Below are positions 40,485 through 56,975 of a DNA stretch of 64,000 nucleotides, one piece after another. The notes under the pieces are model-generated. The model did no database searches. It was not told the origin of the DNA and saw only the letters and a list, made by a program, of their open reading frames with translations. This DNA comes from an uncultured Bacteroidota bacterium (GTDB lineage Bacteria; Bacteroidota; Ignavibacteria; UBA10030; UBA8401): positions 3,987,704 to 4,051,703 of the forward strand of contig OY970334.1 in NCBI GenBank assembly GCA_963717445.1, given 5' to 3'. Position 1 is the stretch's first letter; each line of letters starts with the position of its first letter. The position numbers and the translations under genes are program-made.

Positions 40485-40613
40485 TTCGCTATTCTAAAAG
40501 CCCATATTTTCATTGTGAAATGGTATGTAACATGAAATAACATATCGTTTGCCATTCATACATATTTTGCTATATTTGTTACATATCAATTTTCTCAATA
40601 TTATCACATACAT

Positions 40614-41690
40614 ATGAAATTCAATTCTGATCAACCGTTTGAATTACCCCTTCTTCCACCGGCCTTAAACTTCAAGCATGAGGAATTTTTTGATATTCTA
40701 ATGAAGACGAGAACCGAGTTAGGCGAGTTAAACGGATATTCGTACACGCTTCCCAATCCAATATTGCTGCTTTCTCCCGCCGTACTCAAGGAGTCTGTTG
40801 CAAGTTCGAATATCGAAAATATCAACACAACGATGGAGGAGGCTTTACAAGCTCAACTCTTTCCAGATGCAGAACAGAAAAAGCCCGATAAAGAAGTGCT
40901 CCGGTACAGAGACGCCATCCAGTGGGGGTTTGAAAACCTCAAGAAAATCCCGATCTCGACTCGGTTGATTCTTGGGATTGAAAAAAAACTGATGCCGGAT
41001 AGAATAGAAGGATACAGGAGGACTCAGAATAAAATTACAAACGTCACGACAGGGAAAGCTCTCTATACTCCACCGACCGCTAACGAACTTCCCAGGCTGT
41101 TAGGCAACTGGGAGAATTTTGTCAATGCTGAAGACGATAACATCGACCCGCTTGTTAAATGTGCAATCGCTCACTACCAATTTGAAGCAATCCACCCATT
41201 TAGCGATGGCAATGGTCGAACGGGGAGAATCCTAATAGTATTGTTTCTAATTCAGCGGAAGCTTCTCTCATTGCCGATTCTCTATGTCAGCGGATACATC
41301 AACAAAAACCGAAACGAGTACTATCGGCTTTTGCGCGAAGTAAGCACAGAAGGAAAATGGCATGAGTGGATTCTCTTTATGCTAAAAGGCTACCACCTGC
41401 AAGCAAAAGGGACAAAGGAAGTCATTCTCCGGATTACAGAAATGCTTGAAGAAATGAAGGTGCTTCTCCGGACAAAGCACAGAAAAATCTATTCATCGGA
41501 CTTAGCAGAAGCGTTGTTTGCATATCCGATTGTTACGCCAATTAACCTTGGCAAAAGGTTAGACGTGAACTACCGAACGGCAAGCCGTTACCTTGTGGAA
41601 CTTGAGAAGGGGAAGGTTCTTAGTGAAAGTTACATTGGGAAGTATCATCTCTATTCAAACAAGCGATTGTTGAAAATGCTCAGATCGTAA
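40614..41690 (+). CDS. Fic-domain protein with inhibitory motif and C-terminal HTH
   Basis: HPFSDGNGRTGR; N-terminal SSNIEN matches (S/T)xxxE(G/N); VNYRTASRYLVEL helix-turn-helix. Confidence 0.92.
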   Translation: MKFNSDQPFELPLLPPALNFKHEEFFDILMKTRTELGELNGYSYTLPNPILLLSPAVLKESVASSNIENINTTMEEALQAQLFPDAEQKKPDKEVLRYRDAIQWGFENLKKIPISTRLILGIEKKLMPDRIEGYRRTQNKITNVTTGKALYTPPTANELPRLLGNWENFVNAEDDNIDPLVKCAIAHYQFEAIHPFSDGNGRTGRILIVLFLIQRKLLSLPILYVSGYINKNRNEYYRLLREVSTEGKWHEWILFMLKGYHLQAKGTKEVILRITEMLEEMKVLLRTKHRKIYSSDLAEALFAYPIVTPINLGKRLDVNYRTASRYLVELEKGKVLSESYIGKYHLYSNKRLLKMLRS

Positions 41691-41793
41691 AGTGTGTTTT
41701 GTATTGGGCGCATTACGATTACTGCAATACGCTGGAGTTAAAGAAGCTTCTATAATTATTGTATAACTATGGCACATATAATTTAATTTGCCA

Positions 41794-41880
41794 TCTTCTT
41801 CACGGGTAACGGAAATCTATGCTCATCTTGGAACTACGGAATTGAGCGGTTCGGTAGAAAAATTGGCGATGGCAGGATGA
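41794..41880 (+). pseudogene. Second, synonymously recoded copy of the last 28 codons of integrase 1
   Basis: Encodes SSSRVTEIYAHLGTTELSGSVEKLAMAG*, identical to 40398-40484 in protein, with 15 nt differences. Confidence 0.9.
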
Positions 41881-41910
41881 CGCTTTTATATCTCATGCAG
41901 AGGCACAGCA

Positions 41911-42123
41911 ATGAATATCAGGATTAGGATCGAGAAACTTGAATTGCCCAGGCGAAAATTGCGAGAGGAAGAAGCACGGCTGGAAGAAGAAGCAAGAAAA
42001 GCAGGATTTAGTCTCGATGAATATAAAGAAATCAAAAAACAAATTGCCGCATTGTCCCCTGAGGAGCTAATAGAACTGGCGGGGATGACACTCACGAAAG
42101 AACTTGAATCCGAGAACGAGTGA
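41911..42123 (+). CDS. Small hypothetical coiled-coil protein
   Basis: GAGG RBS; N-terminus MNIRIRIEKLE resembles the ORFs at 55124 and 55462. Confidence 0.6.
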   Translation: MNIRIRIEKLELPRRKLREEEARLEEEARKAGFSLDEYKEIKKQIAALSPEELIELAGMTLTKELESENE

Positions 42124-42169
42124 GTGAATATTTACATTTACCAAGATTCCGGAGGACGCCAGTGGCAAA

Positions 42170-42226
42170 TTTTCGTTTGCCTACGCTCTTTCGGTGACCT
42201 TGAGCGACTTGTTAGGGCGCCACGTT
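42170..42226 (-). other. Truncated integron attC site (left half only)
   Basis: Minus strand AACGTGGCGCCCTAAC-AAGTCGCTCAAGG directly after the ATPase stop; no matching GTTRRRY arm seen. Confidence 0.65.
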
Positions 42227-42431
42227 AGAAAGCCTTACCTTGAGTGATATTTAAGCCGTCCCGGTAGATCATCGGAATTTTATAGCTAATGCCGAATTCC
42301 TCAAGAAAGCCTATGTCCACAAGGAGTCTAATCTTGGTTCGTAACTCCTCGTCTTGGGATTGACCTGCCCCCCAAAAACCGATCCACTCTGAAGTTAGAA
42401 AATTTTATATTGTGGATCAACGGAGGCAGCA

Positions 42432-42710
42432 ATGAGCAGAAAAAAGCATACAGCGGAGGAGATCATCAACAAACTGCGAGAAGCAGAGGTCTTGCAGGCT
42501 AAGGGGATGTCGATCGAGGAAGTGATGCGACAGCTTGGAATAAGCGATGCAACGTATTACAAGTGGCGGAGGGAGTATGGAGGCCTACGGGTTGATCAGG
42601 CAAAGCGATTGAAGGAGCTAGAACAGGAGAACAGCCGATTGCGGAGGGTCGTGGCGGATCTGACGATTGATAACTCGATCTTGAAGGAAGCCTCACGGGG
42701 AAACTTTTAA
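42432..42710 (+). CDS. IS3 transposase OrfA
   Basis: HTH region (ISDATYYKWRREYGG) and leucine zipper LKELEQENSRLRRVVADL. Confidence 0.93.
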   Translation: MSRKKHTAEEIINKLREAEVLQAKGMSIEEVMRQLGISDATYYKWRREYGGLRVDQAKRLKELEQENSRLRRVVADLTIDNSILKEASRGNF

Positions 42711-42754
42711 GCCCGGTCAAACGGCGCCGGGCAGCGGAAGAGATCCAGGAAGAA

Positions 42755-43552
42755 ATGATCGTATCAGAGCGACGAGTATGCCGTGTATTGGGACAAGCAC
42801 GATCAACGCAGCGACAAGAGCACAGAGCCAGCGAAGAAGAAGAACGCCTTACACAGCGCATCACAGAGCTGGCATGTCAATATGGGCGTTATGGCTATCG
42901 TCGGGTAACCTTGTTACTGAGGACTGAAGGATGGCGTGTGAACCACAAGCGAGTCGAACGGATATGGCGTCAGGAAGGCCTGAAAGTGCCCAAAAGGCAG
43001 CGCAAGCGACGACGTCTATGGCTCAATGATGGATCCTATATCCGACTGAGACCAGAACACAAGGATCACGTCTGGAGTTATGATTTTGTTGCAGACAGAA
43101 CGAGTAATGGAAAACCGTTAAGGATGCTCAACGTGATCGACGAGTACACCAGAGAATGCCTGGCGATCAGGATTGACCGGAAGCTTACCTCGAACGATGT
43201 TGTGGAGGCTTTAGCAGAATTATTTGTGACGAGGGGAACCCCGGCACATATCCGCTCGGACAATGGACCGGAGTTTATTGCAGAGGCAGTACGAACATGG
43301 CTTCAACGGCTCGGTGTGGATCCACTCTTTATCGAACCGGGAAGTCCTTGGGAGAACGGATACATCGAATCATTCAACGGAAAGTTAAGAGACGAGTTGC
43401 TTAATGGAGAGATCTTTGATACAATTACGGAGGCAAAGGTTGTGACGGAACGATGGAGGAACTACTACAACAAAATCAGACCACACAGTTCGTTAGGCTA
43501 CAAACCACCGGCACCGGAAACATTTTATTCACTTCAGGTTGCCAATGCCTGA
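42755..43552 (+). CDS. IS3 transposase OrfB (DDE)
   Basis: WSYDF, RSDNGPEF, PWENGYIESFNGKLRDE, RPHSSLGY. Confidence 0.95.
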   Translation: MIVSERRVCRVLGQARSTQRQEHRASEEEERLTQRITELACQYGRYGYRRVTLLLRTEGWRVNHKRVERIWRQEGLKVPKRQRKRRRLWLNDGSYIRLRPEHKDHVWSYDFVADRTSNGKPLRMLNVIDEYTRECLAIRIDRKLTSNDVVEALAELFVTRGTPAHIRSDNGPEFIAEAVRTWLQRLGVDPLFIEPGSPWENGYIESFNGKLRDELLNGEIFDTITEAKVVTERWRNYYNKIRPHSSLGYKPPAPETFYSLQVANA

Positions 43553-44969
43553 AAAAATTAACTAACTTAACATTGGCACATAAACTGGGGGCAGGTCACG
43601 ATAGAGTAGCGGAATCATATTCAGATTTTTTGTCGCGGAAGGCTTGAATGAGATATGCGCTCTCGCCTGCTTCCGCAAGAAGAGTGTCTTCGACACGTTC
43701 TTGGCTTAGCGAGGTTAGTCCTCTCTTAATCGAGTCAGCCTGAAAGATTGACTCACCCACTTTCAGGGCGCGTGGATCGCGTTCTTCTTTGCGAATTTGA
43801 ATGTCTCGAGCTTTCTTAAGTAGATCGATTAAATTGCGAGGGGGCTTGACACCGTTACCATCACGAATTCGGGATAAGATCCAGGTCCACGTCAAAGGTT
43901 TTTTTTCTCCAACGTCGATTTGTTCAGGGAAGAAAAATGCGAAGATTTCTTTCTTAGTTCTTCCGCCAAGGTTTGCCTCATTGATGACTTTCGAGTTATT
44001 CATTATTCGACGCATCAAAAGGTCGAAGAGGTCCTCGTCGTTCCAAGTCACGGCTATTCTTCGGGCATTTACGTGGGTGAGGTTTACGAAGCCGCCTTCT
44101 ATTATTTTTCTAAACAAATCGTTCCTCACAAACAGCTTAAGGCGGATGTTCTCGAATTCGAGCAAATCGAGGTATGTTCTGAATAACGCACGAAGAGCTG
44201 GTTTTTCAGTATTTGGGAATCCTTGGAATGCTTCATCAAGTCTATCAATTACGACCCATGCTTTTAGTTCAATCTGAGCAAGAACTTGATTGAGAAGGAG
44301 AAATGCTTCATAATGGTCAACGACAGGATGCGGTGAGTCACGGGGAGGAGCCTCTTCTCCAAACTCTACTTTTGGTACCAGGATAGGCATTCCTTGTGGA
44401 CTAATCGTCATTTTTAATTCGACGGACTTTGGAGTGATTAATCTCTGAACAACATTAACCAATTTGGAGAAAACGGTGTTGGGTGTATCATCAACTGTGC
44501 GTAAATCAATTTTCTTGAGAAGATCGTCCAACTCGATCATTTCGTCAGAGTAAGATCCTTCATAAACCTGTAGAATCCAATTGCCAACAAGTGAGATGAT
44601 GTAAGCTTTCCAGATTGTCAAGTATTGCCCTTCATCAAGAACTTTCGTTTGTGCAAGGCGTTGGAAAACTGGATTGCCCGAAGGATTGAATCCGGTGATT
44701 ATCTCGGTGTCTTCAAGAGAGGCGATTGATCTGTATGTGCTTTGGAGGATTTTATAGAGTGACGTTTTACCGGTTCCTTTGTCGCCGGCTATAATGTCGC
44801 CTTTGTCTCCAATTAAAGAGCGAAAGGTATCGGTTTCCACGAAGTACTCTTGGAGGCCAGTGTCAAATTCAGCGACTGAACTTCCGAGGTTCAGGTCCTT
44901 CAGTATTTCTAATGGTGTCATTTTGATCTCCTCGTTCTAATGCATTATGTGTTGTGACGAAACGTGGCG

Positions 44970-45035
44970 ACCTAACGAACCCGAGCTAAACTGCAGCGAC
45001 GGCTGGTTCCCTTCGCTTTAGAGACTCATTAGCCC
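44970..45035 (-). other. Integron attC site (degenerate, ~66 bp)
   Basis: Minus strand GGGCTAATGAG...TTTAGCTCGGGTTCGTTAGGTC, ending in a perfect GTTRRRY; shares CGACGGCTGG with the attC at 45750. Confidence 0.65.
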
Positions 45036-45039
45036 GTGC

Positions 45040-45717
45040 TCAGATTGTTGCTTTAATAACGCGTTTTCGTTCTTCCTCAAGCGACGCTATCTGGTCCGCG
45101 CTGAATGGCTCGTACATTTTTACATCTTGATGAGTGATTAGGTTCTCCACAAGCCAGTGTCCAGCGGAAGTTATATTTTTGTGTATCTTCAACTCCCATT
45201 TCATTTCTGTTGTAGTGCCACTCGCTGTTGTCTTTCTTGTTTGAAGGCAGGTCATTATGCTGCCAACAGCAGTGCTAAGATAATCATATAGATCGGGCCC
45301 AAGAAATATGGAGGCGAGAAAAAGATTTTGGCGAGTTTCAAGAACTTTGTGCCAAAATCTATTGATTTCGTCCTTTGGAGTCGCCGTTGTCCACGACCAA
45401 CAATCTTGGTATTCGAAATAGAGCCCATAGACGGAATGATAGTGCGCAAGTTTTTTAGCGGCTGATTGTTTGGCAATTTCAAGCCTGAATCTGCTTCTCA
45501 ACTCTTCATCGCGGAAAGCTACATCGAGCTTGCGAGAAAAGGATTCAACTGATTTCTTCGATATTTCGTCCGCAATGCCTTCGACTCTTCTGAGAAAGTA
45601 ACGCAGGATAAGCCAAACGGCAATTCCTAAGGTAGTGAGAAGTAGCCCAATTGATGGCGCAAACATGCGAGCGACTTCTCGGACAGTTTTTAAGTAAAGG
45701 TCAATTTCTGTCGGCAT
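45040..45717 (-). CDS. Cassette-borne hypothetical membrane protein
   Basis: One N-terminal TM helix, GAGGAG RBS, bounded by attC sites. Confidence 0.7.
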   Translation of the reverse strand: MPTEIDLYLKTVREVARMFAPSIGLLLTTLGIAVWLILRYFLRRVEGIADEISKKSVESFSRKLDVAFRDEELRSRFRLEIAKQSAAKKLAHYHSVYGLYFEYQDCWSWTTATPKDEINRFWHKVLETRQNLFLASIFLGPDLYDYLSTAVGSIMTCLQTRKTTASGTTTEMKWELKIHKNITSAGHWLVENLITHQDVKMYEPFSADQIASLEEERKRVIKATI

Positions 45718-45749
45718 CTTGTTATTGACTCCTCAATAGTTGGTCTGCG

Positions 45750-45899
45750 CCCTAACGACCGGAGCTGAGCTGCGGCGGCGAACAGCCGCCAGGTAGTTCG
45801 TTGCGTGGATGTTCCACTCAGTTGTTCCTAAGACCGTCCAACACCGAGCGGCAAAATCGTCGACGGCTGGGTTCCGTCAGCTTGAGCGGCTGTTTAGGG
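45750..45899 (-). other. Integron attC site (~150 bp)
   Basis: Minus strand GCCCTAAACAGCCGCTCAAGCTGACGG...CCGCCGCAGCTCAGCTCCGGTCGTTAGGGC; outer arms GCGCCCTAA/TTAGGGCGC. Confidence 0.85.
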
Positions 45900-45916
45900 C
45901 GCAGCACGAATATGAG

Positions 45917-46615
45917 CTATTTGAATTCATATGGCTCTTCCGTTAGATGCGCTTCATTTTGTTTGCAATAAATGATACCAATATCACTCAGTAAGAATTG
46001 CATAGTCTTTGGATCCATTGCAACAAGTCCGCGTGATGCGAGCTCACGGATAGCGATGATGAACTCTGGATATTCAGGATTGAATGCTCCAATTGTGAAA
46101 GTCCATCGTTTTGAGAAGTCATCAAAGGCTTTTTGGTATTTCCAGAGAGTGGAAAGAATTTTATTTATAATTTTGGACAGATTTGCAGGCAAAGGTGCTA
46201 CTCCAAGCGGTAGAACTACGTCAGGTGCAGGTGCTGGCGTCGGAAAGGTTGCTTGACCTTGTTTAGATCTAAACTTCCACTGTCCAAATGAAATCTCTTC
46301 AAGGTTTTTAATATATTCCGCCAGATGTTGCAGTGCCGCTGACAGGTGCTTCCGAAACATGAGGACTAAAAACACAACAACGAATGGCCAAGCATATGCG
46401 ATGAGAAGGTCTTTGATCGTGATCCAACTATCAGGCAATTGTATTTGTTGGGTTGTGTTCGTACACTCTCGCGGGACTTGAATCGTTATCGTGTTTACAT
46501 TCTGAGGCTGTAAAGAAGTACCCTTGGTTTTAACAATAGCACTGTCCTTTTTAACAGTTCGAAGCACTTTTTTCACGCTCGTGGAAGGACAATTTGTTTG
46601 TTGGTCTGACGTCAT
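45917..46615 (-). CDS. Cassette-borne hypothetical membrane protein
   Basis: Central TM (YAWPFVVVFLVLMF), proline-rich linker, helical C-terminal domain; GAGGAGG RBS. Confidence 0.7.
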   Translation of the reverse strand: MTSDQQTNCPSTSVKKVLRTVKKDSAIVKTKGTSLQPQNVNTITIQVPRECTNTTQQIQLPDSWITIKDLLIAYAWPFVVVFLVLMFRKHLSAALQHLAEYIKNLEEISFGQWKFRSKQGQATFPTPAPAPDVVLPLGVAPLPANLSKIINKILSTLWKYQKAFDDFSKRWTFTIGAFNPEYPEFIIAIRELASRGLVAMDPKTMQFLLSDIGIIYCKQNEAHLTEEPYEFK

Positions 46616-46673
46616 TTGCTGTTCCTCCTCGTGTGAAAATATTCAGAGTTTTTGAGTTAAGTAGATGTGAAAT

Positions 46674-46705
46674 GTGCTGCGCCCTAACTAAGATTAGATT
46701 GTATG
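46674..46705 (-). other. First cassette junction / attI-like site
   Basis: Minus strand AATCTAATCTTA-GTTAGGGCGCAGCAC; no attC hairpin upstream of the GTT. Confidence 0.45.
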
Positions 46706-47024
46706 TAGCAATAACACGTTGCCTTTTAGTATGAATGATAGACTTCTCCCCACAGGATAATGTAAGAATCGTGGGAGTATGCGGTAGGTTTAAGATTGCC
46801 CCCGCTCTATCTCTGGTACAAAACTACACGATTTTGTAAGCAAACGCAACCTTATCCAACATTTGATTGAATTGCATATCCGCGATTTTTCCTCTATCTT
46901 TTCGTAGATTTCTTGAGGCGGAGACCTTATTTGAATCCATTCCCTTCGAATCAATTGACGAAATCCCATAATTCAAGGCATTCAAAAGTAAACAGACCGG
47001 TTCTTTTCTTATCAACATACAATC

Positions 47025-50000
47025 GTGAAAAATAAGAGTGCGATGAAACAGGTTGTCATCGAAAACCCGATTCTAAATTCCCCATTCAAGGAGCCGGCCC
47101 GCCATTTCCGATTCTCGGACGAAGGTATCACTAACGAGATTGTTGAAGGTCGCAGGATTAGTTCCTACTTCATCCCGATAGCCAAACCCCGAAAAAAAGG
47201 CGGGAATCAACTTACCTTCGATACTGAATGGACTGAAGATCGCATTGAAGAGAACAAGTTCATCAATCAAGTGCGAGAGCGGGTTGCACAATGGAGAAAT
47301 CAAGGGTATCCGTCTTCGAGCATTACCAAGACCACAAAGCAATTGCTTGAATATTGGCAACACGAGGATCGTACTCGGAAACTCTTCTTCTGTCAAATTG
47401 AAGCTGTAGAGACTGCCATCTATCTAACCGAGGTAGCCAAAAAATACGGTGATACCTGGATCGACAATAAGATTCATGCCGCCAATCTCGAAGCGAATCC
47501 GTTGCTCTACAGGGTCGCCTTTAAGATGGCTACCGGTTCCGGCAAAACTGTTGTCATGGCCATGATCATTGCATGGCAAGCGCTCAACAAGATTGCGAAC
47601 TCTCAGGACTCGCTTTTTTCCGATTCGTTCTTGATTGTCACACCGGGCATTACAATTCGTGATCGACTGCGCGTGCTGCTACCGAACGATCCGCAAAATT
47701 ACTACAAAGCGATGGACATAGTTCCGCCGGATTTGCTTGAGGAACTTGGTAAAGCTAAAATCATCATTACAAACTTTCATGCGTTTGGGCGGCGAGAAAA
47801 AGTTGCTGCTGGCAAACTTACAAAGAGCATTCTGAGTAAAGGTGACACATCCGTTTTTACTGAGACGCCCGACCAAATGGTCCGACGTGTCTGTCGAGAG
47901 CTTGGCAGCAAAAAAAACATCGTTGTAATCAACGATGAAGCACATCACTGCTACAGACGAAAAGCAGACGGTGAGGAAGAAATGCTTAAAGGTGATGAAC
48001 GCAAGGAAGCCGAGAAGCGTGAAGAGGAAGCGAGGATTTGGATTTCAGGACTTGAGGCTGTCAAAGCGAAACTTGGCCTCAAGGTTGTCTACGATCTTTC
48101 GGCTACTCCGTTCTTTTTGCGTGGATCAGGTTACCCAGAAGGGACGTTGTTCCCCTGGGTGGTATCAGATTTCTCGTTGATCGATGCAATAGAGTGCGGT
48201 ATCGTCAAGGTTCCTCGTGTCCCGGTTTCTGATGATTCGATGGTGGGGGATCAACCAACGTACCGCGATCTTTGGCTTCGCATCCGAGAACATTTGCCCA
48301 AAAAGGGACGTAAAACTCAGGCGCTTGAGGGAGAGCCCAATCTCCCAGTGGAACTCGAAGGTGCACTCCAGAGCCTATATCTCAACTACGAGAAGTACTA
48401 CAGAAAGTGGGAGCAAAACACTGAGGCTCGTTCACGTGGCCTTACCCCTCCGGTCTTCATCGTAGTCTGCAACAACACCAACGTTTCAAAGATGGTGTAC
48501 GACTATATTGCCGGATGGGAAAAAGAACTCCAAGACGAAGAAAGGATTGTAGTTCCTGGTAAACTCTCCCTCTTCAATAACGAAGAAAATGGAAAATGGA
48601 GTGCAAGACCGAACACGATCCTTGTGGACAGCCAGCAATTGGAATCGGGGGAAGCGATGAGTGATGATTTCAAGAAAATTGCTGCTGCCGAGATAGAAGA
48701 GTTCAAAGCAGAGTATCGCCTTCGTTTTCCAGGCCGGGACGTTGACATCCTAACGGACGAAGATCTACTTCGTGAGGTCATGAACACGGTGGGCAAACTT
48801 GGTAAACTTGGTGAGCAGATCAAATGCGTGGTAAGCGTGTCGATGCTAACCGAAGGGTGGGATGCAAATACTGTCACCCACATCCTTGGTGTGCGTGCCT
48901 TCGGTACACAACTGTTATGTGAACAGGTTGTCGGGAGAGGACTGCGCCGCATGAGCTATGCTGCAAATGAAAAGGGACACTTCATGCCCGAATACGCTGA
49001 GGTATATGGCGTACCGTTCTCCTTCATTCCCTCGGCAGGATCGGCTGTCGATCCAAGGCCCGGCCCAATGCCAACAAGAGTTCGTGCGCTTGAAGACCGA
49101 GTGGCCTGCGAGATTACGTTCCCTCGTCTTACTGGTTACCGATATGAACTGCCCGCTGAAAAACTTACGGCAAAGTTTACAGATGCTTCTCGAATGGCAT
49201 TATCAACTGCTGACATCCCAACCAAGACGGAGAATGCACCAATCGTTGGAGAAACGAGTATTCACACTCTCGACAAACTGAAACTGCGACGTGAGCAGGA
49301 AGTGATATTCCTGCTTTCTAAGTTTGTCTTAGAACGCTACTTGCGGGATGCTGATGACAATACAAAGCCGTGGCTATTCCCCCAACTGCTCCGCATCGCG
49401 AGAGATTGGCGCAACCAATGTGTTACGCTAAAAGACAACACCTTTGTTCAGCTGCTATTGCTCATCGAGTTCGCTAACCAAGCTGCTCAAAAAATCTATC
49501 ATGCAATTGTCAACGCAGATGAAGGCGGGAAGCGACTGATGCCGATTCTGCGACCATTCGATACTATCGGTTCCACTCGTTATGTTGACTTCGATACAAC
49601 TCGTTCCACGTATCGAACTCGTGAGGACCGGTGCCATGTGAACGATGTTGTTCTGCACAGTGGGTGGGAGGGGAAGATGGCGCAGACGCTTGAGGACATG
49701 GAAGATGTTTTCTGCTACGTTAAGAACCAGAATCTCGGGTTCACGATTCCATACACATTGGATTCCGAGGAGCACAACTACGTCCCCGACTTCATCGTGA
49801 AAGTAAATGATGGTCATGGGAAAGAAGACCTATTGAACCTTGTTATTGAGGTAACCGGTGAGAAGAAGAAGGACAAACAGGTGAAGGTATCAACTGCAAA
49901 GACACTTTGGATTCCTGCAGTGAATAATCACAGCGGTTTTGGACGATGGGACTTCTTGGAGATTGAAGATCCCTGGGATGCAGCTCATTCAATCATTGAC

Positions 50001-50258
50001 TTCCTGAGACAGAGAGGTGATTCACAAGCTATCATACAGAAAACCTCCGATGTATCGGGGGGTGAGGCATGTATCCGTAATACAAGGATTGCTGTATGGA
50101 CGATCATCAGCCTAATTAAGCTCGGATCTTCAGACGCTGACATAATCAAAGCATATCCTTCCCTGGATATGGTTGATCTTCAATCTGCTCGGTTTTACTT
50201 TGACCGGCACACTGATGAAATTGAGCAATCAATCAAGCAGCACGAGGAGGCAGATTAG
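47025..50258 (+). CDS. res: Type III restriction endonuclease Res (BPTD_3080-like) with C-terminal DUF433 fusion
   Basis: MATGSGKT, NDEAHH, SATP, MLTEGWD, QVVGRGLRR, PDF...IEVTG; then in frame SGGEACIRNTRIAVWTII...IIKAYPSL (DUF433-like). Confidence 0.88.
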   Translation: MKNKSAMKQVVIENPILNSPFKEPARHFRFSDEGITNEIVEGRRISSYFIPIAKPRKKGGNQLTFDTEWTEDRIEENKFINQVRERVAQWRNQGYPSSSITKTTKQLLEYWQHEDRTRKLFFCQIEAVETAIYLTEVAKKYGDTWIDNKIHAANLEANPLLYRVAFKMATGSGKTVVMAMIIAWQALNKIANSQDSLFSDSFLIVTPGITIRDRLRVLLPNDPQNYYKAMDIVPPDLLEELGKAKIIITNFHAFGRREKVAAGKLTKSILSKGDTSVFTETPDQMVRRVCRELGSKKNIVVINDEAHHCYRRKADGEEEMLKGDERKEAEKREEEARIWISGLEAVKAKLGLKVVYDLSATPFFLRGSGYPEGTLFPWVVSDFSLIDAIECGIVKVPRVPVSDDSMVGDQPTYRDLWLRIREHLPKKGRKTQALEGEPNLPVELEGALQSLYLNYEKYYRKWEQNTEARSRGLTPPVFIVVCNNTNVSKMVYDYIAGWEKELQDEERIVVPGKLSLFNNEENGKWSARPNTILVDSQQLESGEAMSDDFKKIAAAEIEEFKAEYRLRFPGRDVDILTDEDLLREVMNTVGKLGKLGEQIKCVVSVSMLTEGWDANTVTHILGVRAFGTQLLCEQVVGRGLRRMSYAANEKGHFMPEYAEVYGVPFSFIPSAGSAVDPRPGPMPTRVRALEDRVACEITFPRLTGYRYELPAEKLTAKFTDASRMALSTADIPTKTENAPIVGETSIHTLDKLKLRREQEVIFLLSKFVLERYLRDADDNTKPWLFPQLLRIARDWRNQCVTLKDNTFVQLLLLIEFANQAAQKIYHAIVNADEGGKRLMPILRPFDTIGSTRYVDFDTTRSTYRTREDRCHVNDVVLHSGWEGKMAQTLEDMEDVFCYVKNQNLGFTIPYTLDSEEHNYVPDFIVKVNDGHGKEDLLNLVIEVTGEKKKDKQVKVSTAKTLWIPAVNNHSGFGRWDFLEIEDPWDAAHSIIDFLRQRGDSQAIIQKTSDVSGGEACIRNTRIAVWTIISLIKLGSSDADIIKAYPSLDMVDLQSARFYFDRHTDEIEQSIKQHEEAD

Positions 50259-50594
50259 TTGGCCAAACTATACACCAATGAGAATTTCCCTCAGCCTTCA
50301 GTTGATGAACTTCGCAGATTAGGATATGACGTACTCACTTCGCATGAGGCTGGAAACTCAAATCAGCGAATCCCGGACCCCGATGTTCTTAATTATGCAA
50401 CTGAAAAAGAAAGAGTACTAATTACCTTCAACCGGAAACACTTCATAGCTTTGCACAAATCAAATGGTGTGCACTCCGGTATCGTAGTATGCACCGTGGA
50501 CAACGATTTCGTGGCGTTGGCGCAAAGGATAGACGTGGAACTTAAACAGAACGGTAACCCTGCTGGTATGCTGATCAAAGTCAACAGGCATTGA
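50259..50594 (+). CDS. DUF5615 PIN-like protein (putative toxin)
   Basis: LYTNENFP...LRRLGYDV...DPDVLNYA...RVLITFNRKHF...HSGI; TTG start right after the res stop, GAGGAGG RBS. Confidence 0.85.
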   Translation: MAKLYTNENFPQPSVDELRRLGYDVLTSHEAGNSNQRIPDPDVLNYATEKERVLITFNRKHFIALHKSNGVHSGIVVCTVDNDFVALAQRIDVELKQNGNPAGMLIKVNRH

Positions 50595-50618
50595 AGGTCT
50601 CGTCAATAGGACAAACCG

Positions 50619-53420
50619 ATGGCAAAACAAAAAAAGAAAAAAAGGGATGCGAAGATCGTCTACTCAACCCCCGTAGAGCACATGAAGCATCGTGACAAAA
50701 GGGTGAACATTCCCACAGAAGAGTTGCGGGACTTCGTAGCTGAAGATGAGAAGGCGCCCCAAAAGATGTTGTACCCCCGTGATCCGTCGCTCGACCCACA
50801 GCTGGTGTGGAAGGGAAAAGACGAGCAGGACTCAAAGCCTTTAGAAGTTCCCATTGTGCCTATCTACATTCAGGAGAAAATTCACCCTCAGGCGATTGTT
50901 GAGGATTTAAGGGCTCAAGCTCGAAAGGAAAAACCAGAAGATCAGGTTGGTTTATTTGATGACTTCAACGGCATTAACTTCGAGGAAATGATCGATTTCT
51001 ACCAACACGAGCAAAATTGGACAAATCGTGCGATTCTCGGTGACTCACTACTTGTTATGACCTCTCTCTCCGAAAAGGAAGGGCTGAAAGGAAAAGTACA
51101 GAGCATTTACTTTGATCCACCGTACGGTATTAAGTTTGGTTCCAACTGGCAGGTGTCCACCAGGCGGAAAGATGTAAAGGACGGTAAAGTGGAGGACACA
51201 ACGCGGCAACCAGAACAAATCAAAGCATTTCGTGACACATGGGAGAACCACATACACTCTTACCTTGCGTATCTTCGGGATAGACTCGTCGTCTGTCGAG
51301 ATTTGTTGACGGAAAGCGGAAGCCTCTTCGTTCAGATCGGAGAGGAAAACGTGCATCTTGTCAGATCAGTTCTTGACGAAGTGTTTGGGGCCGAGAATTT
51401 CTGCAGTCAAATTGCTTTTAGAACTGCAACAAGCCAGCCAACCACTTTGATTTCATGTGTCTACGATTTTGTTCTTTGGTATGGCAAAGTCAAAAGAGAT
51501 GTAAAATACCGCACGCTAAATCGAGAACGCGAGTACTTTGAGAAAATATCGACCTTTGGCTGGATTGAATTGCAGAACGGACAAGAAAGAACTCTCTCTG
51601 CCAAAGAAAAGAGAGGCGAAATCGCATTACCAGAAGGGGGCAAGCTTTTTAAGGACGCAGATATTACACTCGTGCGTAAACCCGACAAACCATACCAACA
51701 TCCGAGATTCAAAGGGAAGGAATTTCCGCTTTCACTTCAGCTTCGATATGTAGATGGCATTGAGAGGCTTGTTGCAGACGATAGAGTCGTTGTTGTAAAT
51801 GATCGCCTTTGCGGAAAACGATATGAGAGTGACATCCCTTACGTGAAGTATAATTCTGTTTGGGACGATACTATGCAAGGGACTTTCGAGCTGACAAAAG
51901 ACCCAAAAAAATATGTAGTGCAAACAGCACCGAAGGTGATACAGCGTTGTCTTCTTATGACCACTGAACCCGGGGACCTTGTGCTTGATCCGACCTGCGG
52001 TAGTGGCACAACCGCATTTGTCGCCGAACAATGGGGACGGCGGTGGATTACCATTGATACGTCGCGGGTAGCTCTCGCGCTGGCTCGCACGCGTCTCATG
52101 GGAGCGAAATTCCCTTATTACCTTCTCTCAGACTCAGCGGATGGAGCCCAAAAAGAGGCAGAAATTACGGGTAAAATCCCCTCAAGCATAGTTCCAAAAA
52201 GAGAAAATGACATCAAAAAAGGGTTCGTGTATCGACGAATCCCTCACATCTCGCTCAAGTCTATTACAAACGACAGACAGATCGACGCTATTTATGCGAA
52301 GCGACAAGGGAATCTTGACGCAATTCGTGCCGAGTTAAACACGTCTCTCAAGCAGTCATGGGAGGACTGGCAAGTACCAGGAGAAGCAGACCAAACATGG
52401 CCACACAAGACTAAGCAATTCCACGCAGAGTGGTGGAAGCTGTACCGTGAACGGCGGAAAGAGATTGATGACCTTATAGCACGTCATTCTGATACCGAGT
52501 TGCTGTACGATCAGCCGTACGAGGACAATAAGCGCATTAGGGTGACCGGTCCGTTTACTGTCGAATCACTTTCCCCTCACCGGGTACTCTCAACCGCAGA
52601 CGATGATCGCGATGGAAAATTCTCTGAACAAGAAGCAATGCAGCAACAAGACTTCGTCTCGATGATCCTTGATAATCTCCGGAAAGCGGGTGTTCAGAAT
52701 ACAGTAAGAAAAGAGCGACTCAAATTTGATCGACTCGATTCGTTTGCGGGGGTCTGGCTCCATGGTTCGGGTGAGTATTCGGAGAATGGCAAGAGGAAGC
52801 GAGTAGTCATATCTATCGGTCCTGAACATGGAACGGTCGGACCACAACTCATCAAAGAAGCAGCTAAGGAGGCGGTATTGGGGGTTGGTTTTGACTTGCT
52901 CATTGTCTGTGGCTTTGCCTTCGATCCCCACGTTTCCGAAGAGGCGAAACGGTACGGCAAGCTCACTGTCCTCATCGCCCGAATGAATCCCGACCTTGCA
53001 ATGGGTGATGAACTGCTCAAGAAGACTGGAGCAGGCAACCTCTTCATGGTGTTCGGTGAGCCGGACATGGAAGTGAAAAAGCAAAAGGATGGTAAGATCA
53101 TCGTCACTATCAAAGGTCTTGATGTCTACGATCCAACCACAGGTCAGATCCGCTCAAGTACTACAGACGACATTGCATGCTGGTTCATCGATACGAACTA
53201 CAACGGCGAGAGCTTCTTCGTGCGTCATGCTTACTTCACTGGTGCGGATGAGCCATACGAAAAACTCAAGCGAGCCCTCCGAGCCGAGATCGACGAGGCC
53301 GCATGGTCTGCCCTCTACTCCACCAAGAGCCGTCCCTTTGATACACCGATCACAGGAAAGATTGCCGTGAAGGTAATAAATCACTTCGGTGATGAGGTGT
53401 TGAAGGTCTATGATTTGTAA
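50619..53420 (+). CDS. mod: Type III DNA methyltransferase Mod (beta-class motif order)
   Basis: YFDPPY (motif IV), a variable central region, then VLDPTCGSGTT (motif I). Confidence 0.9.
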   Translation: MAKQKKKKRDAKIVYSTPVEHMKHRDKRVNIPTEELRDFVAEDEKAPQKMLYPRDPSLDPQLVWKGKDEQDSKPLEVPIVPIYIQEKIHPQAIVEDLRAQARKEKPEDQVGLFDDFNGINFEEMIDFYQHEQNWTNRAILGDSLLVMTSLSEKEGLKGKVQSIYFDPPYGIKFGSNWQVSTRRKDVKDGKVEDTTRQPEQIKAFRDTWENHIHSYLAYLRDRLVVCRDLLTESGSLFVQIGEENVHLVRSVLDEVFGAENFCSQIAFRTATSQPTTLISCVYDFVLWYGKVKRDVKYRTLNREREYFEKISTFGWIELQNGQERTLSAKEKRGEIALPEGGKLFKDADITLVRKPDKPYQHPRFKGKEFPLSLQLRYVDGIERLVADDRVVVVNDRLCGKRYESDIPYVKYNSVWDDTMQGTFELTKDPKKYVVQTAPKVIQRCLLMTTEPGDLVLDPTCGSGTTAFVAEQWGRRWITIDTSRVALALARTRLMGAKFPYYLLSDSADGAQKEAEITGKIPSSIVPKRENDIKKGFVYRRIPHISLKSITNDRQIDAIYAKRQGNLDAIRAELNTSLKQSWEDWQVPGEADQTWPHKTKQFHAEWWKLYRERRKEIDDLIARHSDTELLYDQPYEDNKRIRVTGPFTVESLSPHRVLSTADDDRDGKFSEQEAMQQQDFVSMILDNLRKAGVQNTVRKERLKFDRLDSFAGVWLHGSGEYSENGKRKRVVISIGPEHGTVGPQLIKEAAKEAVLGVGFDLLIVCGFAFDPHVSEEAKRYGKLTVLIARMNPDLAMGDELLKKTGAGNLFMVFGEPDMEVKKQKDGKIIVTIKGLDVYDPTTGQIRSSTTDDIACWFIDTNYNGESFFVRHAYFTGADEPYEKLKRALRAEIDEAAWSALYSTKSRPFDTPITGKIAVKVINHFGDEVLKVYDL

Positions 53421-53514
53421 AGGAAATTTTTTTTATGCACATGCCAACTTGAAATCTGATGCAAGCTGTGACCCATTAATAATTTTTCCCTAACGTTCAG
53501 ATATTGCCCAAGCG

Positions 53515-54645
53515 ATGAGGCGAGAGTCGATTAAAACGACCATCTTGAAAACGCCGCCAAGAATCTCTCGATTCAATTACTGGAACTTCCTCGACATCAA
53601 TCCACTCCTCCGCCAAAAATTTTACGAAAGGGATTATGATCTAACTGAATTCCGTTGGATGTTTGACAAGAACCTCTCTCAGCGGTATAAGGAGTCTTAT
53701 GAATCGGGAAACACCGAGGCACTCTTTGAATATGCTGAAATCAATCGCTTCTTCCTTCATCAACAGTGGGTTCGAGATAAGCTACAACTATGGCTGTTGA
53801 GGCCAGACAGAAATGTCAAAAAATGGATAAACCGTTTGCTATTCGGTGACAAGTCTGGAAGGCGGAATGAGACCAATCCGGCCGGTCTTCAGAGAATTGT
53901 GGAACGGGACAAGAGAATTTTCATTGATATGATCCGTCTTAGGCAAAAAGGCTATCCGCTAACCGGCTCGTCTTCCTCGAAGAAAGTAGTAGATACTCAA
54001 TCACGTTCGATTTTCTCAAAGCTCGCAAAAAAATATAATGTTGGCGAAGAATCAATTAGAGATGTATATAAGTACTATAATAAATTCTACAAGGAACAAG
54101 CCAAACTTATCGACAAGGAAACCGACCGTGCACTAAGGAGAATGATAAATAAGTTCTATGGAAGATTTCCTTTCAATCGTTATAAATACACTCCCAGATT
54201 TATACTGAGAGATTCCCTTCAAAAACAAACGAAGAAAATAAAACGGACTAAAAGCGAGATTTATCTGGAATGTCGGAGGCTATTGAAAATCTACAAGGAT
54301 CCGAGACTGTCGAAGGCACAAATAGAATACAATTTTGAGACATCAATACTTCAAAATGATTTTCATCGTTGGTGGCGAGGTACGATCAGCCGTTACTACC
54401 CCTGGGGGTTCACTGAAGAAGGATTTATTCGGTTTCTGCGAGACTGCAAAATTATACTCGAAGGTAACAGATACTTTCTCCCATACCAATGGGCTATTCA
54501 GAACCTCGTTGAAGTGATATACCGGATGTCTTCTAACCCCACTGAGGAAGAATTCATCAATGAATTGGAGGATATGAATATTAATGGCTTTTTTGATGTA
54601 ATGGGCTTGTTGCCGAAAGTCAACAAGATGAGATTGGGTCGATGA
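53515..54645 (+). CDS. Hypothetical basic protein with a possible HTH
   Basis: Long AT-rich ORF; IFSKLAKKYNVGEESIRDVY is HTH-like. Confidence 0.6.
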   Translation: MRRESIKTTILKTPPRISRFNYWNFLDINPLLRQKFYERDYDLTEFRWMFDKNLSQRYKESYESGNTEALFEYAEINRFFLHQQWVRDKLQLWLLRPDRNVKKWINRLLFGDKSGRRNETNPAGLQRIVERDKRIFIDMIRLRQKGYPLTGSSSSKKVVDTQSRSIFSKLAKKYNVGEESIRDVYKYYNKFYKEQAKLIDKETDRALRRMINKFYGRFPFNRYKYTPRFILRDSLQKQTKKIKRTKSEIYLECRRLLKIYKDPRLSKAQIEYNFETSILQNDFHRWWRGTISRYYPWGFTEEGFIRFLRDCKIILEGNRYFLPYQWAIQNLVEVIYRMSSNPTEEEFINELEDMNINGFFDVMGLLPKVNKMRLGR

Positions 54646-54694
54646 ACGCCATGAATTAAACCCAATGCGAAGTTCGTAATAAATGTTTAGGATT

Positions 54695-54765
54695 AGAGGT
54701 CAGCCTTCGGTATATCCGGACTTTCGCTCTAACAAAACCGTGTTGACGCTCGAAGGCTGACATCT
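54695..54765. repeat. 15-bp inverted repeat upstream of the small-gene operon
   Basis: AGAGGTCAGCCTTCG (54695-54709) / CGAAGGCTGACATCT (54751-54765), 14/15 match. Confidence 0.7.
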
Positions 54766-54860
54766 TTGAGTCCAAAGTCATCACGGTTTTTGTTTTTTAA
54801 GGCAATGATAAGGCGTCTCAAATAGATCAAATAAATGGTCTTAGAAAGCTGTAACCACTA

Positions 54861-55115
54861 ATGGAAGAACCCCTTAGCAAGAACGCAAATAAAGATGGTC
54901 AAGAGAGCAAAAATCTGCGACCGATTAGGATCCGGTCCGTTAAAGATGCTCGTCGGCTGCTGGCAAGAATCCTAAGGCAATTACAATTGGGTGAAATTTC
55001 GGAGTCGAAAGCAAAGACAATCTCTTATGTTGCAAATAGCTATGCGAAGTTGTTTGAGGTCTCTGAACTGGAAGAACGGGTCGCAGAACTCGAAAAGAGA
55101 ACGACGGCAAAATAG
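54861..55115 (+). CDS. Small helical protein resembling the C-terminal region of DUF5681-type terminase-small-subunit-like proteins
   Basis: IRSVKDARRLLARILRQLQLGEISESKAKTISYVANSYAKLFEVSELEERVAELE pattern, recognised by eye. Confidence 0.55.
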   Translation: MEEPLSKNANKDGQESKNLRPIRIRSVKDARRLLARILRQLQLGEISESKAKTISYVANSYAKLFEVSELEERVAELEKRTTAK

Positions 55116-55123
55116 ATCGATAA

Positions 55124-55465
55124 ATGGTTATGAGGATTGAAGAAAGAATTCGGAGGTTAGAACAAAAGCTTGGATTAGACAAAAGCATCGAGACAGACGT
55201 GGTAACTCTCTTATATGGGTGTGATGAATCACATGGACCTCAATTGGAAGCTGAAGGATGCGTAAGGGAGGGGGATTCGTGGGTGCGGTACGTAGAACCA
55301 AGTGAGAAATGGGCGAAAAGGCAAGAAGCGAAGGGACGTCGCATAAGGACCAGAATTATGTATCGAATTAATACTCCGAGCACCGAAACAGAGGACATCG
55401 TCGAAAAGGCCCAAACCAAGAAATTAAGTTCCTTAGTTAAAAATCGTTCAGCGGTTGCAGGATGA
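55124..55465 (+). CDS. Small hypothetical protein
   Basis: Operonic; N-terminal RIEERIRRLE; ATGA overlap with the next gene. Confidence 0.65.
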   Translation: MVMRIEERIRRLEQKLGLDKSIETDVVTLLYGCDESHGPQLEAEGCVREGDSWVRYVEPSEKWAKRQEAKGRRIRTRIMYRINTPSTETEDIVEKAQTKKLSSLVKNRSAVAG

Positions 55466-55722
55466 GTCTCAAGATACGAATCAAAGATTTGGAAAAAAAG
55501 AAGAACCCAACGGATCAAGGCCCAAAAAGTCACGTCATCATCTTCACTCCAGGTGTTGATAACGTTGATGCGCTGGTTGCCGAATATCGAAAAAAAGATA
55601 GCGAAAGCTTCCTCTTTGTCATCCCGCGATTCATGCGAAGGACAGAATTATCCGATATGAGTGCTCAAAGCGGAAATAATAACGATTCGAAACAGAATGG
55701 ATCCCAGTTAGGACGACCGTGA
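55462..55722 (+). CDS. Small hypothetical protein
   Basis: N-terminal MSLKIRIKDLE; GTGA overlap with integrase 2. Confidence 0.65.
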   Translation: MSLKIRIKDLEKKKNPTDQGPKSHVIIFTPGVDNVDALVAEYRKKDSESFLFVIPRFMRRTELSDMSAQSGNNNDSKQNGSQLGRP

Positions 55723-56975
55723 ATCCGAGTTTTTTGATACCGGAAGACATATTGTTGGAACCTCGGCTCCTCCAAGTGTACTGTTACTTGTTGAGGATGG
55801 TTTGTAATGAGCCGACGAAAATTCGTAAAGACGGGGTTATGGTGGAATTGAGGAGGCTGGAAGTAGCAATTTTAGGAAGAGACATCTCCCACGATCTTGC
55901 TTTACCGATGAGTGACATCGAACCGCTTTTGAACAAATTGGTCGAGGTAGAGCGAATCATAGTTGACAGAAAGGACGACCTTATGAAAATACGATTCATG
56001 AAATTGCTCTTCCCGCGGTCGAGTGATAGTTCAAACGATGAAAGCCTCCGGGGGGATGTCAGCGACTATTGGCTCGACGATTTCAAAACCGACTACCAGG
56101 AATATGTACAGACGAACCTTTCCCAAAAGTCACTTGATAATGCAAAAAGAGTGATGAAATTATTCTGCAATTTCGTTGGGAAAAAGAAGTTGGGCTACAT
56201 CAGGTCATCAGATGCGGAGGACTTCAAACAAATGCGCAAGAATCAAAAATCTCGCGTTTCAGATGCTACTATCAACATGGATATTAGAACCCTTAAGGCC
56301 GCATTCCAATTCGCAGTGGATGTAGGGAAACTTCATGAAAATCCATTCCGAGCTGTAAAGCAAATTCGATGTCCGCGAAAGCAAATGGCAACTTTCAGTC
56401 ATACAGAGTTTAAGCATTTGACTGGTCATATCAAAGAGCCCTGGCTGCTGGACATAGTCAGATTTGACGTGAATACTGGACTCCGACGAGGAGAAATTGT
56501 AAACCTACGTTGGAAGGATGTTGATCTGGCGAACAAACGCATGTTGATTCAATCATCAGCAGAGTACCAAGTGAAGCATGGAAAGTTTCGCCAAGTCCCT
56601 CTCAATAAGGCAGCATTGGGAATAGTCAAAAGACAAAGTAAGGAAACTGAGTGGGTGTTCTCTGACAGCAATGGGTATAAGTTTGTCGATGAATTTGTTT
56701 CGAAGAAATTCAAAGGGTATGTGAGGCTCTGCAAGCTTTCGGAGGAATTACATTTTCATTCTCTTCGGGCAACGTTTGCAACTTGGGCAATTGCGGCGGG
56801 AATGTCGATCTATGCTGTGAAGGCGATCTTGGGCCATGCGTCAGTGAAGACATCGGAAACCTATGCTTCATACGAAATGGACGCACTTCAGAAGGAAGTC
56901 GAAAAGATTGTTTTGGTCGAAGAAGCAGAGGAATTCAAAGCACCGCTGAAGCTTGTAGGCAAAAAACGATCTTAG
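55719..56975 (+). CDS. Tyrosine recombinase 2 with ~110-aa N-terminal winged-helix-like extension
   Basis: GLRRGE, VKHGK, HSLRA, LGH, ETY intact; core region resembles integrase 1. Confidence 0.9.
   Translation: MNPSFLIPEDILLEPRLLQVYCYLLRMVCNEPTKIRKDGVMVELRRLEVAILGRDISHDLALPMSDIEPLLNKLVEVERIIVDRKDDLMKIRFMKLLFPRSSDSSNDESLRGDVSDYWLDDFKTDYQEYVQTNLSQKSLDNAKRVMKLFCNFVGKKKLGYIRSSDAEDFKQMRKNQKSRVSDATINMDIRTLKAAFQFAVDVGKLHENPFRAVKQIRCPRKQMATFSHTEFKHLTGHIKEPWLLDIVRFDVNTGLRRGEIVNLRWKDVDLANKRMLIQSSAEYQVKHGKFRQVPLNKAALGIVKRQSKETEWVFSDSNGYKFVDEFVSKKFKGYVRLCKLSEELHFHSLRATFATWAIAAGMSIYAVKAILGHASVKTSETYASYEMDALQKEVEKIVLVEEAEEFKAPLKLVGKKRS

Follow-up and report, generated by a model that had tools for sequence, protein, structure and literature searches.

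The 64,000-nt window analysed here, a stretch of contig OY970334.1 from an uncultured Bacteroidota bacterium, contains a three-gene operon on the forward strand that resembles a Type III restriction-modification (R-M) system and holds a predicted toxin-antitoxin (TA) pair. The first gene (47025-50258) starts with GTG and encodes the restriction subunit Res of 1077 aa. The second (50259-50594) starts with TTG and encodes a DUF5615 (COG4634) protein of 111 aa, a predicted toxin of the Mut7-C group of PIN-like domains. The third (50619-53420) encodes Mod, a Type III-class N6/N4 DNA methyltransferase of 933 aa. The antitoxin-type domain of the pair, DUF433 (COG2442), forms the C-terminus of Res. 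Within res, a core made of a superfamily 2 (SF2) helicase-type ATPase and a C-terminal PD-(D/E)xK-like nuclease region (47025-49991, from NCBIfam and Pfam matches) is followed by a linker of aa 990-1003, IIDFLRQRGDSQAI (49992-50033), which joins the Res end to DUF433, and then by DUF433 itself with an acidic tail and the stop codon (50034-50258). No stop codon and no in-frame ATG, GTG or TTG occurs from aa 985 to aa 1004 of Res. The TAG stop of res occupies 50256-50258 and the TTG of the DUF5615 gene begins at the very next base, 50259; the N-terminus of its product, MAKLY..., lines up with residue 1 of its homologues, and mod starts 24 nt past its stop codon. An earlier reading made from the letters of the window and its open reading frames (ORFs), hereafter the sequence-only reading, had proposed this layout of three ORFs, and its coordinates were confirmed exactly. 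The NCBI annotation describes the protein merely as a "DUF433 domain-containing protein, partial".

A GAGGAGG motif (50244-50250) lies 8 nt upstream of the TTG and had been taken for a ribosome-binding site. The motif is indeed present, but it doubles as codons of the acidic tail (EEA), and Shine-Dalgarno use is uncommon across Bacteroidota. Given the Bacteroidota host and this double role, less weight is placed on the motif, and coupling by termination and reinitiation is the safer reading. The res, DUF5615 and mod genes share one reading frame, and read-through of the TAG at 50256 would yield a Res-DUF433-DUF5615 triple fusion. The shared frame is probably incidental, since the toxin gene overlaps res out of frame by 8 nt in most of the other fused loci described below. 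A promoter scan of 46500-53700 gave 9 candidates where 8.0±2.5 are expected by chance, and a terminator scan of the same interval gave 11 against 7.0±2.6, which is also chance level, so neither scan gave a sign of a promoter or terminator inside the operon. The locus was found in no RNA-seq run, and cotranscription of the three genes is presumed. An imperfect 14-nt direct repeat (AGGACAAACAGGTG at 49870-49883 and AGGACAAACCGATG at 50608-50621) flanks the res end and the cassette, its second copy overlapping the mod start. A two-copy match of this kind is likely due to chance, and short repeats around the cassette were found at chance level only.

Domain matches agree with the earlier proposal of a Type III-like R-M operon with a DUF433/DUF5615 pair inside it. 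Res belongs to the BPTD_3080 family of restriction endonucleases (NCBIfam equivalog model NF046055, aa 12-989, 1207.5 bits against a cut-off of 800). Because the model spans aa 12-989, the Res part is complete and the last 88 aa (aa 990-1077), consisting of the linker and DUF433, are extra. Pfam ResIII matches aa 161-362 (E 1.1e-11), and the ATPase motifs are present as a Walker A sequence, MATGSGKT, and a DEAH box within VINDEAHH. Pfam RE_endonuc scores 22.8 bits, under its cut-off of 23.4, and the putative nuclease motif P921-D922 ... E942-V-T-G-E946-K-K-K949 is nearly invariant among 42 homologues. Over its BPTD_3080 part Res has no sequence-level relative in PDB, and the AlphaFold2 (AF2) model of the full-length protein is poor, with a predicted local distance difference test (pLDDT) score of 61 and a predicted template modelling (pTM) score of 0.42. 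Mod matches the PADLOC MTase_III model PDLC03632 over its full length (E 2.9e-284), as well as Pfam N6_N4_Mtase (E 1.4e-27) and the Mod of EcoP15I (4ZCF_A, E 1.2e-12). By gene content the window system can be classed as Type III-like R-M, with a predicted cleavage activity. It shares with the classical Type III systems EcoP15I and EcoP1I a related Mod and a Res with SF2 ATPase motifs, followed in the window by a candidate C-terminal nuclease region. However, it differs from them in that res precedes mod, Mod is 933 aa long, Res is of the separate BPTD_3080 family, cargo is present in the operon, and Res has an additional C-terminal domain.

That additional domain matches Pfam PF04255 (DUF433) at aa 1004-1058 (E 3.6e-15) and the DUF433 structure PDB 2GA1 at aa 1001-1073 (E 3e-11 to 6.9e-13). 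Free-standing DUF433 proteins are 108-115 aa long and carry 30-40 residues ahead of a conserved K-T-P-G-x-x-G-G motif. In alignments the fused domain lacks this N-terminal helix of about 30-40 aa. It also has no start codon of its own, and so is not a separate small protein of a two-gene operon. The window pair is a derived variant of the DUF433-DUF5615 class, not a canonical member. In the AF2 model, itself poor overall, aa 999-1002 and 1007-1013, in and around the linker, have pLDDT values under 50, and linker length differs among fused lineages, from 23 to 31 aa when counted from DPW[DE]A to GG. Elsewhere, a free-standing DUF433 protein (P0121, locus L049, 3921-7719) shares an identical run of 16 residues, ACIRNTRIAVWTIISL, with the fused domain of the window. 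An MmeI-family R-M enzyme is encoded about 320 nt upstream of P0121 and its DUF5615 partner, which places a TA pair of this class next to a further R-M system. Eight further proteins unrelated to Res (P0274, P0301, P0314, P0316, P0338, P0341, P0362 and P0363; 134-187 aa) have two DUF433 domains in tandem.

The 111-aa ORF matches PF18480 (DUF5615, E 7.2e-19) and, weakly, Mut7-C (E 0.002); it has no other Pfam family and no PADLOC match. Its AF2 model is confident (pLDDT 91.5) and shows five beta-alpha units in an alternating beta-alpha fold. The nearest relatives (P0124-P0127, 59-65% identity) sit in free-standing DUF433+DUF5615 pairs, whereas identity to the partner toxin of any other fused locus is lower, at 55% or less. 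The sequence-only reading had pointed to N and H residues at positions that are usually acidic and had suspected a weak or non-nucleolytic protein. The residues do depart from the acidic pattern, but they are not a sign of decay in this copy, because they are common to a subfamily of 74 aligned members that includes ordinary free-standing pairs: N7 is found in 71 members and N58 in all 74, while position 61 holds D (43 members) or H (31 members). Residues Y5, E8, T27, D40, N58, R59, F62, H66, H72, G74 and C78 are invariant in the same alignment, and D24 is (near-)invariant. Among the toxins of fused loci, that of L041 has the canonical acidic motifs DEN...FDRDDF and the others have NEN...NRx[DH]F.

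The junction between Res and DUF433 was checked in independent assemblies, as was the TAG|TTG boundary. A contig of a metagenome-assembled genome (MAG) labelled Bacteroidota in NCBI (JBAWAE010000593, L001) is 99.955% identical to window positions 47049-56027 over 8979 nt, with four substitutions and no indel. Logan contigs from two other runs (X1, 49600-50572; X2, 49855-50037) span the Res/DUF433 junction with zero differences, and one from a third run (X3, 50232-50451) spans TAG|TTG, also with zero differences. With no stop or start codon between the two parts and an intact junction in independent contigs, the antitoxin domain is truly fused to Res, as had been proposed.

Fusions of this type recur. 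When the Pfam architectures of the best 120 Res clusters were compared, five of them (about 4%), the window's own included, carried both ResIII and DUF433. No other Pfam-annotated C-terminal addition to Res was found among these 120 clusters. In the four foreign fused clusters the DUF5615 gene follows directly, and then mod, sometimes beyond further cargo. The clusters closest to the window Res (78-89% identity over the core) are about 990 aa long and unfused, and their loci carry other cargo. The sequence-only reading had considered that close homologues with a stop codon before DUF433 would mark the fusion as a one-off; these homologues have no DUF433 at all, and fusions recur across the family. 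A degenerate DNA pattern for the junction (W[DE]A, 63-93 nt, GGxAx[IV]xxxRI[PA]VW), which matched all fusions previously found and none of the other loci compared, found 22 contigs in a scan of a metagenome collection, 21 of which are Res-DUF433 fusions. Together with the protein matches, and after removal of duplicates, there are 23 distinct Res-DUF433 loci from many environmental bacteria. A representative-library search with the Res tail plus DUF433 yielded mostly short gene fragments, together with a further clean fused fragment (P0243), two broken fragments and the tandem DUF433 proteins mentioned above, which are not Res fusions. When the DUF433 tail was the sole query, word-index limits restricted the matches to 2 free-standing proteins. 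A scan of genome contigs with a single Res protein gave 10 loci, none of them fused, which were used for the cargo survey below. PLSDB plasmids contain many BPTD_3080 Res genes and no DUF433 fusion; the PLSDB matches with 86% coverage (H7 and H8) are low-identity Res tails.

Sixteen of the 23 loci have a fused Res that is intact, or cut only by a contig end, with an intact DUF5615 gene directly downstream. In three loci DUF5615 is lost and Res-DUF433 is kept (L030, L045 and L046), in three more Res has a large internal deletion and the DUF433 tail is kept (L025, L034 and L043), and one, L028, which is identical to L031, is fully decayed. Only L030 keeps no trace of DUF5615 behind the fused domain; the other 22 of the 23 loci have the gene or a remnant that can still be recognised. 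An 8-nt overlap between the toxin ATG and the res stop is seen in 15 distinct loci, while the spacing differs in the window, where the codons are adjacent, in L041 (+6) and in L025. In L045 (12440-13000) and L046 (3290-3600) a repeat of about 100 nt stands in place of DUF5615, in three tandem copies and one copy respectively, with the first codons of the toxin (M-K-I-A-R-L-Y-S-N) kept. This repeat looks like a miniature inverted-repeat transposable element (MITE) that deleted the toxin; in L046 the R-M genes are still intact. Where Res is gutted and the toxin ORF survives, in L034 and L025, a DUF433 tail ORF with its own start is retained. In L025 (672-1130) DUF5615 has lost its C-terminus and its ORF runs into a second Res C-terminal tail (…GEFGRWAFLEILDPWDAKNEILAALKRKTV), an arrangement expected from recombination of two res ends; as the contig is only 1.17 kb, a chimeric assembly is possible.

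The fused domain is maintained by selection, as the low pairwise ratios of nonsynonymous to synonymous substitution (dN/dS) within fused lineages indicate. These are 0.12-0.34 for the linker plus DUF433 (0.54 for one low-divergence pair), 0.07-0.21 for DUF5615 (0.44 for the same pair, with one further pair saturated) and 0.05-0.18 for the last 200 codons of Res. Both fused DUF433 and DUF5615 are under purifying selection. Fused Res proteins are scattered on a map of Res-core identity, fused-to-fused identity being only 70-78%: the nearest core to that of the window is the unfused P0003 (89%), and the nearest to P0044 is the unfused P0071 (87%). Cassette exchange accounts for some of this scatter. 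Between L027 and L038, dS is 0.57 at the Res end and 0.05-0.07 in DUF433 and DUF5615, a drop of about ten-fold that indicates a recent transfer of the cassette between diverged res alleles. Identity of the fused DUF433 between groups is 33-56%, and a short and noisy neighbour-joining tree with 119 other homologues separates the toxins that partner fused domains into at least five clades. The diverged cassettes, the differing linkers, the at least five toxin clades and the proximity of the window toxin to free-standing pairs point to more than one fusion event. These sequences may nevertheless all descend from one ancient fusion that has since diverged, as the toxin tree is noisy and recombination is demonstrable.

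The gap between res and mod of BPTD_3080-type R-M systems is a general hotspot for small cargo, mostly TA pairs. Its content differs among L002, L009, L011-L016, L003, L006, L008 and L048, and the gap is empty in L010. L002 and L009 hold a HigB-like toxin (Pfam E 9e-4, below cut-off) with a helix-turn-helix (HTH)/Peptidase_M78 antitoxin, and L009 has an IS200-like transposase as well. L012 holds a PIN VapC preceded by a small ORF without Pfam match, and L013 holds DUF4258 with an MqsA-like zinc-finger protein. A nucleotidyltransferase with HepT (MNT-HepT) is found in L016, where it was recognised by eye, and in L003, by Pfam. In L011 (4130-5686) and L008 (9684-11257) a DUF5131 protein comes after a gene of about 277 aa without Pfam match; L015 contains a GIY-YIG gene and L014 a 173-aa gene with no family assigned. 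ATP-binding cassette (ABC)-type ATPases (AAA_15/AAA_21) are present in L003 (11413-12249) and L043. On plasmid pAQ5 of Picosynechococcus sp. PCC 7002 (L048, 29469-36153) the order is Res, UPF0175, DUF3368 (PIN-like) and Mod, unfused, with an Abi-family gene upstream. This strain is cultured and genetically tractable, and could be a convenient setting in which to study the role of a TA cargo in the gap.

Among the gap cargoes observed, only the DUF433 antitoxin is fused to Res. The gap of 10 unfused loci, a small sample in which no targeted search was made, showed no DUF433-DUF5615 pair standing free of Res. The sequence-only reading had proposed that the antitoxin is tethered to the restriction subunit, and the fusion is indeed recurrent and selected; the mere presence of the pair, however, does not imply a designed coupling to restriction, as it is one of many TA cargoes in the hotspot. 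PIN-type TA pairs are known to cluster with type I R-M genes (Matelska et al. 2017, PMC5499597), and genes embedded in Hachiman, BREX, DISARM and type I R-M systems are often defence genes (Payne et al. 2024, bioRxiv 10.1101/2024.01.29.577857). As in those cases, variable TA or defence genes are here nested between core immune genes. In those cases, however, the embedded genes are separate, while in the present one the system is of a Type III-like family and one cargo is fused in frame to a core gene. Literature searches found no paper on an antitoxin domain fused to a restriction subunit and none on the res-mod hotspot of the BPTD_3080 family. What is already known is the presence of TA cargo in R-M operons, the DUF433-DUF5615 class (mostly as a prediction), and the Res and Mod families in annotation pipelines.

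In the window the R-M operon probably lies in an integrative island (39480-56975, from Pfam scans), between two tyrosine-recombinase genes (39480-40484 and 55719-56975). Between the first of these and res are genes for a Fic/DOC protein (40614-41690), a transposase of the IS3 type of insertion sequence (42755-43552) and, on the minus strand, an ORC/CDC6-like ATPase (43596-44921) and ORFs without family match (45040-46615). Further ORFs without family match (53515-54645) follow mod. The window also holds a type IX secretion system (T9SS) sorting domain and a SusC-like receptor, both Bacteroidota-like. A stabilising (addiction) role would be plausible in such an island.

The explanation that we favour, with reasonable rather than strong confidence, is that of a DUF433-DUF5615 TA module whose antitoxin exists solely as the C-terminus of Res and which makes cells addicted to an intact res and operon. 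A VapBC-like module of this class would have been captured in the res-mod hotspot of a widespread Type III-like R-M family, where the antitoxin would have lost its own start and its N-terminal helix and become the C-terminal domain of Res. Antitoxin would then be made only through translation of the entire res. As the toxin gene begins right at or within the end of res, toxin synthesis can be read as coupled to res termination, and toxin would be made only just after a full-length Res-antitoxin. It would be held inactive on the Res tail, each such Res molecule carrying its own bound toxin. Because the antitoxin occurs only as the Res C-terminus, its supply would depend on an intact res; loss of the operon or island, or truncation of res, would end that supply and uncover toxin already made, leading to counter-selection. 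A TA role of the cargo fits with the other TA pairs in the same gap of relatives, and is supported by the closeness of the window DUF5615 to ordinary free-standing pairs. The natural deletion series described above is suggestive, in that it fits the TA reading, with few cases on short contigs. We know of no Type III enzyme that gives addiction by itself.

The pairing of COG2442 with COG4634 was first predicted by comparative genomics (Makarova et al. 2009, PMC2701414). One PIN-COG2442 pair, Synechocystis VapBC10, whose toxin may lie outside the DUF5615 subfamily, has been characterised experimentally as a TA system whose two proteins form a complex and whose antitoxin is sensitive to ClpXP (PMC3834315). 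The toxin of M. tuberculosis VapBC45 has been placed in the related PIN_10 cluster (Matelska et al., PMC5499597). The window pair resembles free-standing DUF433/COG2442-COG4634 pairs in its two families, in the order of antitoxin then toxin and in tight translational coupling. In contrast to them, its antitoxin is not a separate protein of about 108 aa but a domain of a 1077-aa Res, and autoregulation by promoter binding of a free antitoxin is presumably lost or altered. In fused single-chain TA proteins such as CapRel-SJ46 (PMC9712102), too, an antitoxin domain acts in cis within a larger polypeptide. There, however, the antitoxin domain is joined to the toxin itself, whereas in the window it is joined to a third protein, Res, and the toxin is a protein of its own.

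Several points weigh against addiction. Antitoxins usually work through lability, which a domain attached to a protein of 1077 aa may lack. Binding of the fused DUF433 to the window DUF5615, like the toxicity of the latter, the relative stability of the two and the addiction outcome, is something that we infer. Three acidic residues of the canonical DUF5615/PIN sites are replaced (N7, N58 and H61), so that toxic activity is a prediction and the classical metal-dependent PIN mechanism is not assured. Foldseek comparison of the DUF5615 model with PDB gave no significant match (best E 0.09), its top matches being generic flavodoxin- or CheY-like folds; this agrees with the report that the Mut7-C/COG4634 group of PIN-like domains has no solved structure (Matelska et al. 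2017, PMC5499597). The intermediate that one would expect, a DUF433-DUF5615 pair not joined to Res, was not seen in the gap of the 10 unfused loci, a small sample. Finally, there are just three cases of Res deletion, on short contigs of low coverage, in which the tail ORFs are out of the res-start frame and their expression is assumed.

A broader form of the same idea, which we consider unlikely though tenable, is that the Res-tethered antitoxin is a built-in sensor of integrity and attack. Loss, truncation, degradation or sequestration of Res would unmask DUF5615, and the trigger could be a nonsense mutation, loss of the island, or an anti-restriction factor or protease of a phage. If so, the same physical complex would deliver both restriction and abortive killing, and this would be the first direct covalent coupling of TA to R-M.

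Restriction-coupled abortive infection, by analogy with PrrC, is quite unlikely as the principal role. The Res tail would here sequester the toxin until an anti-restriction factor, proteolysis of Res or host shut-off freed DUF5615, which would then kill or arrest the infected cell and so back up restriction. The gene of PrrC, an anticodon nuclease, lies within the operon of the type Ic R-M enzyme EcoprrI, which keeps the nuclease latent. The two arrangements share a gene for a known or predicted toxic nuclease between R-M genes and, as proposed for the window, silencing via the restriction enzyme. They differ in that the window toxin is a small DUF5615 protein rather than an ABC-ATPase plus anticodon nuclease, in that the R-M system is Type III-like rather than type Ic, and in that silencing would use a dedicated antitoxin domain covalently on Res. 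The window toxin was also considered as a PrrC homologue, which was rejected because Pfam finds nothing but DUF5615 and Mut7-C in it; the two would resemble each other in function alone. The conserved and selected covalent link between antitoxin and Res speaks for an abortive role, as do the frequency of defence genes among those embedded in defence operons (bioRxiv 10.1101/2024.01.29.577857) and the ABC-type ATPases in the gap, which are like embedded defence candidates. However, the trigger, the sensor surface and any release of the toxin by phage are hypothetical, most TA cargoes in the gap are unfused, so that coupling to Res is no general need, and the toxin has been lost in some lineages with the R-M genes intact (L046).

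Neutral hitch-hiking, which appears decidedly unlikely, would have a selfish, antitoxin-first module land after res and become fused by a small deletion that was merely tolerated. The promiscuity of the gap, which also admits an IS200-like transposase, a GIY-YIG gene and the MITE-like repeat, is what such a history would leave; the exchange seen between L027 and L038 could spread one accident, and just about 4% of close Res clusters are fused. Yet the cassettes are deeply diverged, at 35-55% identity, with varied linkers and toxin subtypes in at least five clades, which suggests repeated fusion or long persistence. The fused domain is moreover under purifying selection, and the 10 unfused loci, a small sample, have no unfused pair in the gap.

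An exapted docking pair, in which DUF433 recruits DUF5615 as a stable accessory subunit of Res-Mod, either a second nuclease or a regulator, is very unlikely. The conserved fusion agrees with it, coupled expression would favour production near 1:1, and the toxin combines non-canonical N7, N58 and H61 with strongly conserved polar residues (E8, D40, R59, H66 and H72). However, the same residues occur in the nearest DUF5615 relatives, which are in free-standing TA pairs in unrelated contexts. Fused cassettes moreover fall into at least five clades, one of them with canonical acidic motifs (L041). DUF5615 has been deleted in three lineages, in one of them with the R-M genes intact (L046), and about 95% of the 120 closest Res clusters do without DUF433-DUF5615. 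An assembly or sequencing artefact, or a one-off read-through mutation, is refuted by the same junction in an independent MAG and in contigs of other runs and by the 23 distinct homologous fusions.

A real, recurrent and selected architecture is therefore well supported, and from it we infer the functional consequence, for which addiction to an intact res and operon is the reading that we prefer. TA and R-M genes are often neighbours, yet by 2017 neither a direct interaction nor a physical link between the two had been demonstrated (PMC5499597), and none was found in the later literature searched. A recurrent natural fusion makes several questions testable: whether a toxin sits on the restriction complex, whether it polices res, a gene normally free to decay, and whether anti-restriction leads to cell suicide. 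Beyond the fused loci, the res-mod gap of BPTD_3080-type R-M systems could be mined for TA and defence genes, in the manner of "guilt by embedding".

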